This document shows positions 2,741 to 18,345 of a stretch of DNA of 46,496 nt, piece by piece. Below the pieces are notes generated by a model. It was not told the origin of the DNA and searched no databases. It saw only the letters and a list, made by a program, of their open reading frames with translations. Made by a program: the position numbers and the translations under genes. Every line of letters starts with the position of its first letter. Positions within the stretch are counted from its first letter, which is position 1. The stretch comes from a virus (taxonomy: Duplodnaviria > Heunggongvirae > Uroviricota > Caudoviricetes), in IMG/VR virus record IMGVR_UViG_2630968543_000003. One strand, 5' to 3'.

Positions 2741-3102
2741 TCGTACTCAACCCCCGCTGTTTTGAATTTGATCCCCGCTGCCTGCAATGCGTGCTCGACG
2801 TCGAAGCGGTCCAGCCATCCACCAAAGTGGTGCGGCATCATTACCACCCGCTCACCGCTATTTATTGGGTGGCCCATACGGGGTTCGTAGCCGTCCGGTA
2901 ACTCGACTTCCCTCGCTTCCAGTTCTGCAATTCGGCACATAGCATCAATATTTGTGTCCTCCAGGCGCTTAATTTCATCCAGCAGCGCCAGTACCACCGA
3001 CGGTGTGACCTTCATCCGAAACGCCTGCAATTTTTGAGGCGTTGCCACTGTTTCAATTGCTACTGCTGCCTCACGCAGTGCCTGATAATCAATCCCGCTC
3101 AC
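2737..3102 (-). CDS. hypothetical early protein (121 aa, GTG start)
   Basis: ORF in the coupled leftward operon; only a GTG start is available; no confident family. Confidence 0.4.
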   Translation of the reverse strand: MSGIDYQALREAAVAIETVATPQKLQAFRMKVTPSVVLALLDEIKRLEDTNIDAMCRIAELEAREVELPDGYEPRMGHPINSGERVVMMPHHFGGWLDRFDVEHALQAAGIKFKTAGVEYE

Positions 3103-3322
3103 GCCCGACCTCTCCCTGTGCTGTTTTATATGCCCGCAACATATCGCGGGTTTTACCGGATAAAACCGACTTCATGAAAAACACACCACTGTGAGTTGCA
3201 ATAACGTCCGGCGTGCAAAGCAATGCAGCATCCACCACCCGGTTATGTTTACGAAATTCGAACACGGTGCAGGTGATCACGATGTTCGCTACGGCTCCGT
3301 AGTCCTGGTATTCGATTTTCAT
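3089..3322 (-). CDS. hypothetical early protein (77 aa)
   Basis: ATG at 3322 overlaps the upstream stop (ATGA). Confidence 0.35.
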   Translation of the reverse strand: MKIEYQDYGAVANIVITCTVFEFRKHNRVVDAALLCTPDVIATHSGVFFMKSVLSGKTRDMLRAYKTAQGEVGRERD

Positions 3323-3888
3323 TCCGGATGCTCCTGAGCCACGTTGAAATCGCCATGATCACGACAAGGCATCACAACAAATTCAGGATTGCCATACATT
3401 GAGTTGATGATGGAATCAAACTGAATTCTGACCGCTTGCCCGTCACCGGAGGGACGTAACTGGACGGGAATAAATTTACGCTCACGACCAAACATCTTCT
3501 CTGGATAACTCAGGTAACCCGCCTGGATCACCGGGTGTGTACAGAGGTCAAATTTTTTCGGAATGATGCGTTCCAAATCCGGAAAACAACCGTCCACCAA
3601 TTTAATGCCGGTAATGGACAGTCGGCGCTGAAACTGGTCGCGATGAACAGCGATCGGCTCTTTACTAAAAATCAGCTCTGTCGTTTCGGCTTTGGCCGGG
3701 ACGCCACCTTCGAACTGGACAATGATGTTTTTCTTCGTCCGGATGCCGTGAGTCATGCGCAGTGCCACGGAACCATTGGTTGCCTCAATATGTTTTGGCG
3801 TGATGTGAAGACCGTTCAGGTAATAACGAACGTCGTTTTTAGCAGCGCACACCAGAGCGGCGCGAATAAGTTTTGACTGGATGATCAT
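3319..3888 (-). CDS. DnaN-like protein (beta sliding clamp domain II-III homolog, 189 aa)
   Basis: Segments NDVRYYLNG, KLVDGCFPD..IPK and C-terminal VVMPCR align by eye with E. coli DnaN motifs QDVRYYLNG, KLVDGRFPDYRRVLPK and YVVMPMR; GGAGG RBS; ATG at 3888. Confidence 0.55.
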   Translation of the reverse strand: MIIQSKLIRAALVCAAKNDVRYYLNGLHITPKHIEATNGSVALRMTHGIRTKKNIIVQFEGGVPAKAETTELIFSKEPIAVHRDQFQRRLSITGIKLVDGCFPDLERIIPKKFDLCTHPVIQAGYLSYPEKMFGRERKFIPVQLRPSGDGQAVRIQFDSIINSMYGNPEFVVMPCRDHGDFNVAQEHPE

Positions 3889-4634
3889 GCTTTATCCTCC
3901 CATCCGATTACCTGGAAAAGCCCCATCTTCGGGTGATACCAGCGTGTGCCGCGTGGTTCAGCCTCTGACATCATTTGGTGGAATGCCGCCATAAATGTCT
4001 CAAGCTCGACGATAGCCCTGCGAGACAACAGACCGTCCGGAGTCATAAATTCGTGCGTGTCGGTAGGGATGTGGTAGGCGTTGACCAGATTCCGGCACTT
4101 GGCGTCACTCATTCCGCTTTTGGCTACCACCTGGCGGTAACCGACATATCCGGTGCGCATTGTGCCGCGTTTGATGTTCTCCACAGCTTTGGTGACCGTT
4201 TCGATCTTCTCTTCAACATGACTCAGGCGCTTCTGCTGGCGAACGGCATCGGCGGCCATTGCAGCGATCATCTCCATTTCCGTCAGCGGCGCGTGAGTTC
4301 GGAAATAGCTGTTAACCAGTTCGCGCTGAACCTGCCATGCAAGAGTATCGTTAAAAGGCTTCGTCAACATCAGGTAACCAGACTCGAAAAGAATGATCCC
4401 TTTGGCAGTTCGCGCGGCAAAGGCATCAGAAAGTGACTCCGTACGTATTACGTCCGCAGTCATTTCAAGAAAATCCACCCCTTCGATAAAGTGAGAACGG
4501 TTGCGGTTAAACGCAGCACGGGCGGTACCTTCCGGGCGCTGGTGGACGTCATCAATTATTGCAAATGTCACAACACGCTGACCGCGATATTCGATTACCG
4601 GAAACTGTTTGTTGTTGATGGTTACAATATTCAT
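3885..4634 (-). CDS. antirepressor-like protein (ORF6N / Bro-N type N-terminal domain)
   Basis: Chosen start is the internal ATG at 4634 (MNIVTINNKQFPV...) with GGAG RBS 6 nt upstream; track ORF extends to 4709; N-terminal region resembles phage antirepressor DNA-binding domains. Confidence 0.5.
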   Translation of the reverse strand: MNIVTINNKQFPVIEYRGQRVVTFAIIDDVHQRPEGTARAAFNRNRSHFIEGVDFLEMTADVIRTESLSDAFAARTAKGIILFESGYLMLTKPFNDTLAWQVQRELVNSYFRTHAPLTEMEMIAAMAADAVRQQKRLSHVEEKIETVTKAVENIKRGTMRTGYVGYRQVVAKSGMSDAKCRNLVNAYHIPTDTHEFMTPDGLLSRRAIVELETFMAAFHQMMSEAEPRGTRWYHPKMGLFQVIGWEDKA

Positions 4635-4677: not shown

Positions 4678-5505
4678 TTACTTAACCTGAATAAATGGTG
4701 TGTTGGCACCGCTGGTCATGTATTGCGGCAGTGTACCGTTCCACTTGTTGATGGCTTCCAGCTCCATAACACCGGGGTTCTGGCGCAGAGCTTCACCGCG
4801 TAAACGAATAGCATCGGCTTCGGCCTGGGCTTTTGTGCGAATCGCATCTGCCTGTCCGGCAGCTTCCGCGCGCAACATGTTGGCTTCCGCTTCGCGCTGT
4901 TTTACTTCCTGCTCGCGTTGCAGGGTTTTCTGGTTCGCCGTGACTTTGGCATTAATGCTGTCGATAACAGTAGGCGGGTACTCCGGCTTACCCACATATG
5001 AGAGGCTCATTACCTGAATACCGATGGGCGTCATTTCTTCCTGAATGTCTTTAAGAGCTGCATCCAGCAGCTCAGACTTGCCGCCGTCGATAAATTTGTC
5101 GGTGGTCATTTTGCTGGCCAGTCGGTTGAGTGCGTCGGCTATCTTCTGGCGCAGGTCGGTGTCGGTAATGTCGTCCACGCCTTTGCGGTAGGTCTGAAAG
5201 ACTGTGGTAACTTTGGATGGATCAACTTTGTAGGCCACGCCGATGTGATAGCCGATGGTTGTACCGTCACTCATCTGGAAACTGAATGGATCATCGTAGG
5301 TCTTCATCTGCTTAAAGGTCGGGAAGATGTAAACCTCAGTGTTCCATCCCGTCCAGTAGCGCCCAACACCGACCACTTCACCGACGCCTTTATCGTCGCC
5401 CAGTTTGTTTACTTTGATGCCCACATTACCAGGCTCAACGCGATCGCAACCGACAAGGCCAATGGTCGGCAGAACAAGGGCTAAAGCAAAAAGTAATTTT
5501 TTCAT
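4678..5505 (-). CDS. SPFH/band-7 (prohibitin-like) domain lipoprotein
   Basis: 275 aa; signal peptide with lipobox LVGC; SPFH-like core followed by an Ala/Glu/Arg-rich coiled-coil tail; AAGGA RBS; ATG at 5505. Confidence 0.75.
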   Translation of the reverse strand: MKKLLFALALVLPTIGLVGCDRVEPGNVGIKVNKLGDDKGVGEVVGVGRYWTGWNTEVYIFPTFKQMKTYDDPFSFQMSDGTTIGYHIGVAYKVDPSKVTTVFQTYRKGVDDITDTDLRQKIADALNRLASKMTTDKFIDGGKSELLDAALKDIQEEMTPIGIQVMSLSYVGKPEYPPTVIDSINAKVTANQKTLQREQEVKQREAEANMLRAEAAGQADAIRTKAQAEADAIRLRGEALRQNPGVMELEAINKWNGTLPQYMTSGANTPFIQVK

Positions 5506-5690
5506 CTTTTATCCTTAGAAAAAGAAAGACCCTTATAAATGGCATAAATGCAGGGCGGGGTCAGACACGCCAGAGCAAAGCCAGAAATCACTGCTACCGT
5601 ATCCTTCATTGATATGAGGGCCGGAACGATTAATCCGTAAATACATGTGATAATTGCCAGTGATATAACTATTCTGAAATAAATGTTCAT
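5502..5690 (-). CDS. small hydrophobic membrane protein (62 aa), partner of the SPFH lipoprotein
   Basis: Two predicted transmembrane segments; AGGAGG RBS; its stop overlaps the SPFH start (ATGA). Confidence 0.5.
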   Translation of the reverse strand: MNIYFRIVISLAIITCIYGLIVPALISMKDTVAVISGFALACLTPPCIYAIYKGLSFSKDKR

Positions 5691-5750: not shown

Positions 5751-6143
5751 TCAGAATGGTTTTGTTGCCATCAGTTCGTAATATCCGGCGCTCCATGTGT
5801 CATATTTTCTGAACCATTTTTCTGTATACTGTTTCCTGGCGATGAGTCTGCGCAGTCGTCTGATTGTTCGCTGGTGTGCGCGGGTATACTCTGTGGTTGA
5901 TTCTCCACGTTTCCATATCTCATTCCTGTTGAAGATAAAACGCTTGTCAGGATAGCGTTGTCGGAATCCTGAACGTTCAAAAGCGCGGGTGGTCATAAAG
6001 AAGGCCAGGTAACGAATTGCCGTTTTTCGAGTGAGGCATTTTTTTGTTCTTCCGTGGCGTGTTACAAAAAATAACGGGCCGACGGGTGTATCATGTTTCT
6101 GTAATGCCTGGTCAATGGCGCTGGCGGTGCGGTTGTCGATCAT
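5751..6143 (-). CDS. hypothetical basic protein (130 aa)
   Basis: ORF with ATG at 6143 overlapping the upstream stop; Arg/Lys-rich; no family recognised. Confidence 0.45.
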   Translation of the reverse strand: MIDNRTASAIDQALQKHDTPVGPLFFVTRHGRTKKCLTRKTAIRYLAFFMTTRAFERSGFRQRYPDKRFIFNRNEIWKRGESTTEYTRAHQRTIRRLRRLIARKQYTEKWFRKYDTWSAGYYELMATKPF

Positions 6144-6358
6144 TTCTTTATTTCTCCCGAATAACGTTCATGACTCATTACTTCCCAGTTCCGGCCGTCG
6201 TCTTTCGATAACAGCCGCCAGCGACGGTTAACCTTCAGACTGAGATATCCGGTGCGCTGTATCCGATGCGGAAATATCCGTCGGCATCGGTACAACAACA
6301 GGACCTGCAATGCCTGCCGGTGGATCCGCTCAGGAATGCGTGTTGCTGTTAATGCCAC
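6140..6358 (-). CDS. hypothetical protein (72 aa, GTG start)
   Basis: AGGAGG RBS 4 nt before the GTG at 6358; coupled to the downstream gene. Confidence 0.4.
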   Translation of the reverse strand: MALTATRIPERIHRQALQVLLLYRCRRIFPHRIQRTGYLSLKVNRRWRLLSKDDGRNWEVMSHERYSGEIKK

Positions 6359-16561: not shown

Positions 16562-18345
16562 AGCCGTCGGATGGAGAAGGCGCAGTTATCAGCACCACCA
16601 GCAACCCGGAGTATTACTTTGTTGTTGCCCTGGCCGGGCAGTCAAACGGTATGGCGTATGGTGAAGGGCTTCCACTGCCGGAGACATATGACCGTCCGGA
16701 CCCGCGTATTAAACAGCTGGCGCGTCGCAGCACTGTCACGCCGGGTGGTGCGTCCTGTAACTACAATGACATTATTCCTGCGGACCACTGCCTGCATGAT
16801 GTTCAGGATTTGAGTAAGTTTTCACACCCGAAAGCCAGTGCAGCTCAGTATGGATGCGTGGGGCAGGGATTACATATCGCGAAGAAATTGTTGCCGTTTA
16901 TTCCGGCGAATGCCGGTATTCTTCTGGTTCCGTGCTGCCGTGGTGGTTCTGCATTTTTGGCGGGCGATGAAGGTACCTTCAGCGAATCCACCGGCGCAAG
17001 CGAGACCTCGGCACGCTGGGGTGTAGATAAGCCACTGTACAAGGACCTGCTTACCCGTACTCAGGCCGCACTGAAGGCCAACCCTAAAAATATTCTGCTT
17101 GCAGTGGTCTGGATGCAGGGCGAGTTTGATTTGAAACAGGGTGCATACGCCACTCAGCCGGGGCTGTTTGATTCCATGGTGGAAAAATATCGTTCTGACC
17201 TGTCGGAATTCGGAGGTCAGTGTCTCGGGGGCTCTCCGTCATCGGTTCCCTGGATTTGTGGCGACACGACCTACTACTGGAAGCAGACTTATTCTTCGCA
17301 ATACGATGCGGTGTATGGTGCATACAAGACGAAATCCGCAAAAAAAATCTTCTTTGTGCCGTTTATGACGGATGAAAACGGGCGAAATGTGGGTACCAAC
17401 GAGCCGTCAGAAGATCCGGATGTTGCGGATATTGGGTATTACGGAGCCGGTGGTCGAACGGACGCCAAAACCTGGACGACGGCTGACCGTAAAACGCATT
17501 TTGGATCATGGGCACGTCGTGGGATTATTTCCGACCGTCTGGCAACGGCGATTCTTGTGCATGCCGGGAGAACCGCTGAATTCATTACCGGAAAACAGCC
17601 TGATACGGTGAAGCCCACCGGACCTTCCGGTGAAGGTACGGAGAGAGAGCCGGAAGGTCCGGTCAGTAACCGAACCCTGATGAGTCTGCTGGCGTCCGGC
17701 GAAGACCTGGCATCACAGGGCTGGCGCTATTATCACAAACCGGCGAGCGGAGACAATGTTAACAAAAACATTGCTGAAGCGGTGGTCAGTGATGCGGGGG
17801 CTACGGGAGGTAAGGCCCTGCAACTGAATAAACCGGAAAACCACATCTGGTTTCTGGAGCATGATGCAGCCGGGCAGGGGGCAGAGTTGCTGAAGAAAGG
17901 AGGACGTGTGAGCGTACGGTTTAAGTTGCCGGGTTCACTGGTGCCGAATCAGTTTGCCCTGGGCATTTACTGGCAGTTGTCGTCCCTGCCGGAGGGAGTG
18001 ACGCTGGCAGAGGAAGGCAACGACATGCTGATGTCCTTCTTTCTGCAGACGGATGCGACGAACCTGAACGCGATGCACCACAAGAAGCCGAATGCGAAGC
18101 TGGAAACGTTCGGGGTCTTTGATAACGGATGGCACACACTGGCTTTTGAGTTTGCCGGAAACAACAGCATTCAGGTGACGCCGGTACTGGATGAGAAACG
18201 GGGGACGCCGTTCACACTGGTGAAATCTCCGGCATCAGGGGCGGCGGACAAACTGCAACTGACAGGCATATCAAAGGCGGCGACATATACGCTGCTGATT
18301 GACAGTGTGAAGGTGGAAGTGAACAACGCGGATGCCGCGGCATGA
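16552..18345 (+). CDS. nanS: prophage sialate 9-O-acetylesterase (NanS-p-like, SASA family)
   Basis: 597-aa ORF from a GTG; GQSN motif (ALAGQSNGMAYGEG) typical of SASA esterases; located between tRNAs and lysis genes. Confidence 0.7.
   Translation: MVVKPSDGEGAVISTTSNPEYYFVVALAGQSNGMAYGEGLPLPETYDRPDPRIKQLARRSTVTPGGASCNYNDIIPADHCLHDVQDLSKFSHPKASAAQYGCVGQGLHIAKKLLPFIPANAGILLVPCCRGGSAFLAGDEGTFSESTGASETSARWGVDKPLYKDLLTRTQAALKANPKNILLAVVWMQGEFDLKQGAYATQPGLFDSMVEKYRSDLSEFGGQCLGGSPSSVPWICGDTTYYWKQTYSSQYDAVYGAYKTKSAKKIFFVPFMTDENGRNVGTNEPSEDPDVADIGYYGAGGRTDAKTWTTADRKTHFGSWARRGIISDRLATAILVHAGRTAEFITGKQPDTVKPTGPSGEGTEREPEGPVSNRTLMSLLASGEDLASQGWRYYHKPASGDNVNKNIAEAVVSDAGATGGKALQLNKPENHIWFLEHDAAGQGAELLKKGGRVSVRFKLPGSLVPNQFALGIYWQLSSLPEGVTLAEEGNDMLMSFFLQTDATNLNAMHHKKPNAKLETFGVFDNGWHTLAFEFAGNNSIQVTPVLDEKRGTPFTLVKSPASGAADKLQLTGISKAATYTLLIDSVKVEVNNADAAA

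Follow-up and report, generated by a model that had tools for sequence, protein, structure and literature searches.

The DNA analysed here (the window, a stretch of 46,496 nucleotides from the virus record IMGVR_UViG_2630968543_000003) is a lambdoid prophage integrated next to yecE in E. coli. Its early-left operon carries, on the minus strand, a gene for a small protein related to the bacterial beta sliding clamp DnaN, which is referred to below as the mini-clamp. On re-reading of the DNA, the open reading frame (ORF) of the first-pass annotation, which covered positions 3319 to 3888 with an ATG start and 189 aa, was matched exactly. The encoded protein consists of about 1.5 clamp domains, and the deletion that separates it from DnaN removes the ring interface and spares the pocket for clamp-binding motifs (CBMs), a pattern that is quantified in the present analysis. 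Among 5426 complete E. coli genomes, 59 carry the gene intact (coverage of at least 80%), 57 of them with at least 95% identity, and the newer name given to the protein (WP_000586690.1) by the Prokaryotic Genome Annotation Pipeline (PGAP) is 'beta clamp domain-containing protein'.

Homology to DnaN and Domain Architecture

Searched as a single sequence, the window protein matched Pfam PF02767 marginally and below threshold (17.4 bits, cutoff 27) and TIGR00663 likewise below threshold (19.1 bits, cutoff 137.65), with DnaN chains of the PDB being found at an E-value of about 2e-3. A few relatives exceed the PF02767 cutoff, for example P0064 with 34.9 bits. When a family profile was built from a 38-sequence alignment, the DnaN-fold match proposed in the first-pass annotation was found to be significant: DnaN chains were the top matches of an hmmsearch against the PDB (E = 3.7e-16), and hhalign of the profile against E. 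coli DnaN gave a probability of 98.6% (E = 6.6e-16). In addition, the AlphaFold2 model of the window protein (predicted local distance difference test, pLDDT, 93.6; predicted template modelling score, pTM, 0.88) retrieved beta clamps as all of its best PDB matches in Foldseek (E of about 1e-6), and superposed on DnaN over 164 residues at 2.7 Å, a match that takes in domain II together with the C-terminal half of domain III. A solved structure of a short clamp form was not among the PDB matches. The similarity to DnaN is real, and with the family alignment it is unambiguous. The three motifs from which the homology had originally been read by eye proved to be true anchor points of the DnaN alignment, since NDVRYYLNG equals QDVRYYLNG at DnaN positions 149-157, KLVDGCFPD..IPK equals KLVDGRFPDYRRVLPK at positions 235-250, and VVMPCR equals VVMPMR at positions 360-365.

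As had been noted before, domain I is missing: the family profile gave no match to DnaN residues 1-124 (-2.8 bits). However, the accompanying description of a two-domain protein was wrong and is corrected here to a complete domain II followed by one half of domain III. In family members PF02767, which represents domain II, is matched over positions 8-116 of 116, whereas PF02768, which represents domain III, is matched at positions 66-121 of 121 only. Scoring of the family profile against pieces of DnaN by hmmsearch gave the same division, with 54.8 bits for domain II (125-253), 9.8 bits for the second half of domain III (313-366) and 0.8 bits for its first half (254-314). While DnaN is built from three clamp-fold domains in 366 aa, the 189-aa window protein therefore retains one complete domain and one half domain.

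In the model, domain II shows the element order beta-alpha-beta-beta-beta-beta, loop, beta-beta-beta and is followed by a linker with the motif DGxFPD..R.IP and then by alpha-beta-beta-(short alpha)-beta. Within residues 114-177 these elements are a helix at 123-133, three strands and the C-terminal VVMPCR strand. Domain II of DnaN keeps two channel-lining helices; in the window protein the second of these is gone and is replaced by a short loop with the proline P64, which is 96% conserved. The same element order was found in the model of P0081 from phage IME207 (pLDDT 91.1), a member of the T1-like-phage clade with about 32% identity, and assignment of secondary structure with DSSP detected no helix between strands 55-59 and 69-73 in either model. 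Since P0081 shares the element order at this low identity, the 1.5-domain architecture is family-wide.

Loss of the Ring Interface and Retention of the Clamp-Binding Pocket

In the head-to-tail dimer interface by which the DnaN ring is closed, I78 and F106 of domain I pack on I272 and L273, and salt bridges connect K74, R96, R103 and R105 with the segment E298-E304 (PMC11139829). CBMs are bound in a pocket in which subsite I is formed by R152, L155, T172, G174, H175, R176, L177, P242, R246, V247, V360 and M362, and subsite II by H175, N320, Y323, V344 and M362-R365 (PMC11139829). In our alignment, all of these interface residues fall in segments that have no counterpart in the phage protein. 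All 18 pocket residues, by comparison, have an aligned counterpart in the window protein, and both subsites are present (Table 1). Because 164 residues of the model superpose on DnaN, the geometry of the II/III junction that forms the pocket is retained as well.

The pocket positions are also selectively conserved. Identity to E. coli DnaN amounts to 11 of 18 pocket positions in the window protein versus 35 of 142 positions elsewhere (Fisher p = 0.0025). Among 141 cluster representatives with at most 50% identity, the set on which the conservation values given here are based, mean entropy was 1.34 bits in the pocket columns as opposed to 2.81 bits in the remaining ones (Mann-Whitney p = 9e-7), and pocket positions accounted for 12 of the 30 most conserved columns. 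In DnaN numbering, R152, G174 and P242 are each conserved in 99% of the family, L155 and M362 in 96%, T172 in 91%, H175 and P363 in 89%, Y323 in 88%, R365 in 80% and N320 in 72%. At the position of the pocket histidine, where the window protein has serine (S40), its close relatives have histidine, arginine, cysteine or tyrosine, and judging from these residues pocket specificity may vary within the prophage clade. Those passages of earlier papers on short phage PolIII-beta homologs that were searched make no mention of a kept pocket combined with a deleted ring interface.

Table 1. Positions of the mini-clamp gene, its protein segments and its immediate neighbours in the window.
Feature	Position	Residues (aa)	Strand	Remarks
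Mini-clamp coding sequence	3319..3888	1-189	minus	189 aa + stop, ATG start; RefSeq WP_000586690.1
Equivalent of DnaN domain II (DnaN ~132-250)	3550..3888	1-113	minus	PF02767; hhalign to DnaN 136-250
Linker and second half of DnaN domain III (DnaN ~313-366)	3358..3549	114-177	minus	PF02768 66-121; hmmsearch; model
C-terminal tail, poorly conserved	3322..3357	178-189	minus	pLDDT ~60 in last block; missing from many homologs
RYYLNG, subsite I	3811..3828	21-26	minus	R21=R152, L24=L155; R 99%, L 96%
ATNGS	3769..3783	36-40	minus	T37=T172, G39=G174, S40=H175; Ser in window, His in 89% of family
DGCFPDLERIIP, subsite I	3559..3594	99-110	minus	P103=P242, R107=R246, I108=V247; P 99%, R or K 91%
QAGY, subsite II	3514..3525	122-125	minus	Q122=N320, Y125=Y323; N 72% (Q 9%), Y 88%
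FVVMPCR, pocket floor, C-terminal strand	3361..3381	170-176	minus	V171=V360, M173=M362, P174=P363, C175=M364, R176=R365; M 96%, P 89%, R 80%; DNA reading
Shine-Dalgarno sequence GGAGGA	3895..3900		minus	6 nt before ATG, within 3' end of upstream gene; sequence reading
ORF6N antirepressor-like gene, upstream (context only)	3885..4634		minus	Pfam ORF6N 1.6e-12; PHROG anti-repressor
77-aa gene, phrog_1001, unknown function, downstream (context only)	3089..3322		minus	ATGA overlap with mini-clamp gene

Family Size, Selection and Annotation

In an exhaustive search of representative sequences, clustered at 50% identity, 1762 clusters were found at E<=1e-10, and at E<=1e-3 the number rose to 10042. 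Each of the 150 top-scoring representatives stands alone, without domain fusions, and the full-length ones among them have about 170-214 aa and are matched from end to end (profile positions 1-177); in these relatives the gene is accordingly no fragment of a larger disrupted gene, which would have spoken against the original proposal. The window protein matches PHROG 3007 over residues 1-179 (E = 5.8e-65), and BFVD holds many phage proteins of 180-210 aa with template modelling scores of 0.7-0.8 to the model. The same database also contains full-length, three-domain phage clamps and homologs of intermediate length (about 237-266 aa), such as those of Seurat (246 aa), BcepNazgul (237 aa) and REQ2 (266 aa). 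These intermediate forms may have two genuine clamp domains and could reveal the route by which the truncation arose.

The gene is under purifying selection, with a ratio of nonsynonymous to synonymous substitution rates (dN/dS) of 0.14 relative to a Klebsiella homolog; in deeper comparisons synonymous sites were saturated. The isoelectric point (pI) is basic, 9.08 in the window protein, with medians of 9.24 in the enterobacterial prophage clade and 8.3 among the 141 representatives, as compared with 5.25 in E. coli DnaN. In Salmonella phage Fels-1 (L007 3196-3830; STM0896 and STM0896.2n) a split or partly replaced copy was found, in which residues 80-187 alone match, with 72% identity, across two annotated ORFs. 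PHROG 27198 (81 aa) is composed of such C-terminal mini-clamp fragments.

The class to which the mini-clamp belongs has been noticed before. Kazlauskas and Venclovas (2011; PMC3201878) reported five of 12 phage PolIII-beta homologs to be short, and Kazlauskas et al. (2016; PMC4889955) raised the question of what purpose PolIII-beta homologs serve when they stand alone in viruses lacking a polymerase. Moreover, gp15 of Bcep43 has long been annotated as 'DNA Pol III b subunit fragment'. The class is thus known and annotated, though uncharacterised, and the window gene is an ordinary representative of it. The earlier remark that no described function was known for such a protein accordingly stands in so far as we found no functional study; the class itself, however, had already been reported in 2011 and is annotated by PGAP. 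In the literature searched, no functional work on truncated or mini phage clamps, on decoys of this kind or on anti-defence roles was found. A lead from the recombination directionality factors of large serine integrases (PMC11795197), considered as possible moonlighting clamps, proved irrelevant, these factors being an SSB and an exonuclease.

PHROG 3007 and many RefSeq phage records (IME207, DS8, C1, Skate, Bcep43, Bas77-79 and others) bear the label 'RusA-like Holliday junction resolvase'. The RusA domain PF05866 had no match in the window protein at E<=10, and the structural neighbours of the model are clamps only, not RusA. Given the clamp fold and the missing PF05866 match, the RusA-like label is a spreading annotation error.

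Genomic Context

The mini-clamp gene shares ATGA stop/start overlaps with both of its neighbours, at 3885-3888 with the upstream gene and at 3319-3322 with the downstream gene, and is thus part of a tightly coupled operon. Its placement in the early-left operon beside an antirepressor-like gene, as given in the first-pass annotation, was borne out; the upstream protein has an ORF6N domain. Together with the window, five prophage loci carry the mini-clamp in an early-left operon between repressor and integrase, the others being from Limnobaculum (L005), Photorhabdus (L006) and Klebsiella (L009, L010). Its immediate neighbours in the window, L006, L009 and L010 are the antirepressor-like gene on one side and a small gene (about 75 aa) on the other, and in L005 the antirepressor-like gene is found a few genes further upstream. 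The phrog_1001 gene is also conserved downstream of the mini-clamp in L005, L006 and L009. However, phrog_1001 occurs in 101 phage records, including many Stx-converting phages, and most of these are without a mini-clamp; in CharmingMan and phi467 it adjoins the antirepressor and the mini-clamp is absent. A three-gene module of antirepressor, mini-clamp and 77-aa gene was therefore rejected. Since the phrog_1001/antirepressor pair occurs without it, the mini-clamp gene is an independent cassette; both of its neighbours are backbone genes, and the upstream antirepressor-like gene is not a demonstrated partner.

Antirepressor-like proteins differ in their N-terminal DNA-binding domain, which is ORF6N, Bro-N or pRha, but have in common a C-terminal domain (about 135 aa; identity 47-55%) that ends in [KN]MG[LI]FQVIGWE and is encoded at window 3885-4634, L005 4317-5072 and L006 5264-6004. 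This domain is also found in phages without a mini-clamp.

In five other lineages, which are unrelated, namely Bas77 (T1-like), Shewanella phage 1/41, EP23 (Dhillonvirus), Snoke (Kagunavirus) and Bcep43 (Naesvirus), the mini-clamp gene is an opposite-strand, separately transcribed insert within clusters of head or structural genes. Coordinates of such inserts are L002 6989-7525, L003 7001-7549, L012 4477-4989, L013 4465-4986 and L014 4498-5079. The Snoke gene has its own ribosome-binding site and terminator. In Bas77 the gene lies beside anti-restriction, ParB-like and methyltransferase genes; the DNA methyltransferase is adjacent in this phage, and in Bcep43 and Shewanella 1/41 one lies at another place of the same region of the genome. 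Two small Bas77 proteins (L008 36250-36447 and 44590-44775) share an N-terminal QMKLF that fits the CBM consensus Q-phi-x-[LM]-[FL], which may be due to chance.

In none of the about ten contexts examined was the mini-clamp placed in a replication module, and this accessory, non-replicative context, which recurs across lineages, is an addition of the present analysis. An identical Klebsiella allele is accompanied by a DnaB/DnaC-type module in one prophage and by a DEAD-helicase/Toprim module in another, and an adaptor bound to one type of phage helicase was therefore rejected. The window encodes a helicase and a primase, and no polymerase, clamp loader or methyltransferase was found in it; likewise, neither a polymerase nor a clamp loader was found in Bas77. 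When the DNA preceding the stand-alone genes of Snoke, EP23 and Bcep43 was scanned for sigma-70 promoters, the scans gave weak 9-of-12 matches or none and are uninformative on the timing of expression, and PADLOC defence-system models matched neither the mini-clamp protein nor its neighbours.

The early-left operon also contains a gene for an SPFH/Band-7 lipoprotein, after which comes one for a small membrane protein, as well as a ParE-like toxin gene (PGAP name; window 4678-5505, 5502-5690 and 6140-6358). Cargo of the moron type comprises a Gram-negative porin (PF00267, E = 2.6e-151) as well as a protein that resembles sialate O-acetylesterase (SASA and DUF6645; window 13729-14871 and 16552-18345). 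The early region of the window matches that of E. coli N61, and relative to the N61 prophage the window is a mosaic in which near-identity is limited to this region.

Possible Functions of the Mini-Clamp

The combination of a lost ring interface and a retained pocket suggests that the mini-clamp may be a ring-incompetent derivative of the beta clamp that keeps the hydrophobic pocket at the II/III junction for CBMs, i.e. QLxLF-type peptides. Such a protein would not encircle DNA and would instead act as a free receptor for CBM peptides. Because no phage-encoded neighbour is shared across lineages and CBMs are universal in bacteria, clamp clients of the host would be the most parsimonious and likeliest ligands, candidates being the clamp-loader delta subunit, the alpha and epsilon subunits of DNA polymerase III (Pol III), Hda, Pol II, IV and V, MutS and MutL, and RecBCD. 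The reading that we favour, although tentatively and from comparison of sequences and models, is that the mini-clamp serves as a competitive receptor or decoy that draws a subset of clamp clients off host DnaN. In the window, the protein would be expressed from the early-left operon after induction and would sequester or divert some clamp-binding proteins, so that the clamp interactome would be rewired in favour of the phage.

Several points weigh against this proposal. Phages without a polymerase depend on the interaction of host Pol III with the clamp, and an indiscriminate sponge for CBMs would thus harm the phage itself. The strong shift to a basic pI, about 9.1 in the window protein, would not be expected of a protein that merely captures peptides and hints at binding of nucleic acids. 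Furthermore, the window allele has serine in place of the pocket-bridging His175 (S40, codon 3769-3771) and glutamine in place of Asn320 (Q122), by which substitutions its pocket may be weakened or retuned. Finally, the pocket residues belong to the most conserved motifs of DnaN, so that part of their conservation may be structural, and the detection of homologs is itself biased toward the pocket motifs.

The main alternative, which we regard as unlikely but worth serious attention, is a loader-independent DNA tether resembling UL42/UL44, which would bind DNA without forming a ring while its pocket holds a CBM-bearing enzyme on the phage DNA. The enzyme held in this way could come from the host (Pol III, Pol I or ligase) or from the phage, and recombination-dependent or rolling-circle replication could be supported in this way without a clamp loader. 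The basic charge of the family relative to DnaN is consistent with a tether, as it follows the rule, given by Kazlauskas and Venclovas (2011; PMC3201878), that non-ring viral processivity factors binding DNA directly have a high pI and ring clamps are acidic. The conserved pocket would suit such a role equally, as would the gene content of the phages concerned, which encode helicase, primase and recombination functions, lack a polymerase and must therefore recruit host polymerases. On the other hand, a tether agrees less readily with the placement of the gene, which lies outside the replication modules in all of the about ten contexts and occurs independently of the type of replication module. 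In addition, the remaining 1.5 domains have lost one of the channel-lining helices.

Less probable still is an adaptor for a phage-encoded partner, in which the pocket would bind a CBM-like peptide of the antirepressor-like protein or of a phage DNA methyltransferase. The antirepressor-like protein of the window ends in KMGLFQVIGWE, which may be compared with AMSLF of the delta subunit, and its C-terminal domain, with the ending [KN]MG[LI]F, is kept under three different N-terminal domains; from this sequence pattern, the domain could be a ligand of the clamp or of the mini-clamp. The translational coupling of the two genes and the methyltransferase genes near the mini-clamp in Bas77, Bcep43 and Shewanella 1/41 are in line with such a partnership. 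However, no neighbour is shared across lineages, the antirepressor and phrog_1001 occur together without a mini-clamp in many phages, and in a scan of all ORFs of the window and Bas77 terminal CBM-like motifs were found at chance level.

The models of the first-pass annotation, taken here as a closed ring like that of PCNA or as a poison that caps the host DnaN dimer through the ring interface, are very improbable. The clamp fold as such is present, and pairing of the edges left exposed on the half-domains is possible in principle, a total of six domains being reached with four such chains. A PCNA-like trimer, however, needs two full domains per chain and is unsupported by a chain of 1.5 domains. 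Likewise, poisoning of host DnaN through its normal interface is unlikely, as the mini-clamp has neither the one side of it, domain I with I78 and F106, nor the other, with I272, L273 and the E298-E304 segment. The loss of one inner helix, the basic pI that is unlike that of ring clamps, and the clamp loader that was not found in these genomes argue further against a ring. A decaying, functionless dnaN remnant or a RusA-like resolvase, as suggested by the old 'fragment' annotations, the PHROG 3007 label and the split Fels-1 copy, has a negligible probability, since thousands of diverged members keep a constant length and architecture with a dN/dS of 0.14 and confident models in two clades, by which conservation the remnant is already refuted, while the clamp fold and the failure of PF05866 to match at E<=10 contradict a resolvase.

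Returning to the proposed decoy, DNA replication and repair in bacteria have their central docking hub in the beta clamp, which is also an antibiotic target. If the mini-clamp is a free-standing docking pocket, it would represent a naturally evolved competitor for clamp-binding motifs and a new type of phage-host interference, and it could be used for titrating clamp clients in vivo and as a minimal scaffold for the study of pocket ligands and for screening. It is conceivable, although we consider it somewhat doubtful, that many phage lineages carry such a 'pocket-only' soluble clamp mimic, be it decoy or tether, by which the access of host enzymes to the clamp is reprogrammed. If so, the mimic would affect the clamp loader, Hda, translesion polymerases, mismatch repair, RecBCD or clamp-dependent defence factors, which would amount to a general and previously unrecognised strategy of host takeover or counter-defence and would answer the question raised in 2016 about stand-alone PolIII-beta homologs in polymerase-less viruses.

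Comparison with Known Systems

The closest counterparts of the mini-clamp are the short phage PolIII-beta homologs, including PHROG 3007 and gp15 of Bcep781/Bcep43, which form the same class of stand-alone proteins of about 180 aa without domain I, often in genomes that lack a polymerase. With DnaN the mini-clamp has the homologous clamp fold and the CBM-pocket residues in common. However, DnaN is an acidic, closed ring that is put in place by a loader, while the mini-clamp is basic and is without domain I and the I272/L273/E298-E304 interface. PCNA and T4 gp45 form acidic, loader-dependent trimer rings in which chains with two complete domains are joined head to tail, none of which applies to the mini-clamp. 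The herpesvirus proteins UL42, UL44, BMRF1 and PF-8 are non-ring processivity factors that likewise have a clamp fold and are basic; they bind a partner peptide near the interdomain connector and require neither a closed ring nor a loader. A factor of the UL42/UL44 type has a basic DNA-binding face, no ring and a cognate polymerase in the same genome; the mini-clamp has a basic pI and lacks the ring elements, but no polymerase was found in the window or in Bas77. The same host hub is known to be targeted by other phage factors: MuC of phage Mu acts on the host clamp during infection (PMC12867686), and Gp168 of phage Twort was encountered in complex with the clamp (PDB 7evp) among the structural matches of our model. 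Both Gp168 and MuC bind the clamp itself; in contrast, the mini-clamp, which from its sequence mimics the docking site of the clamp, would act on the clients of the clamp.

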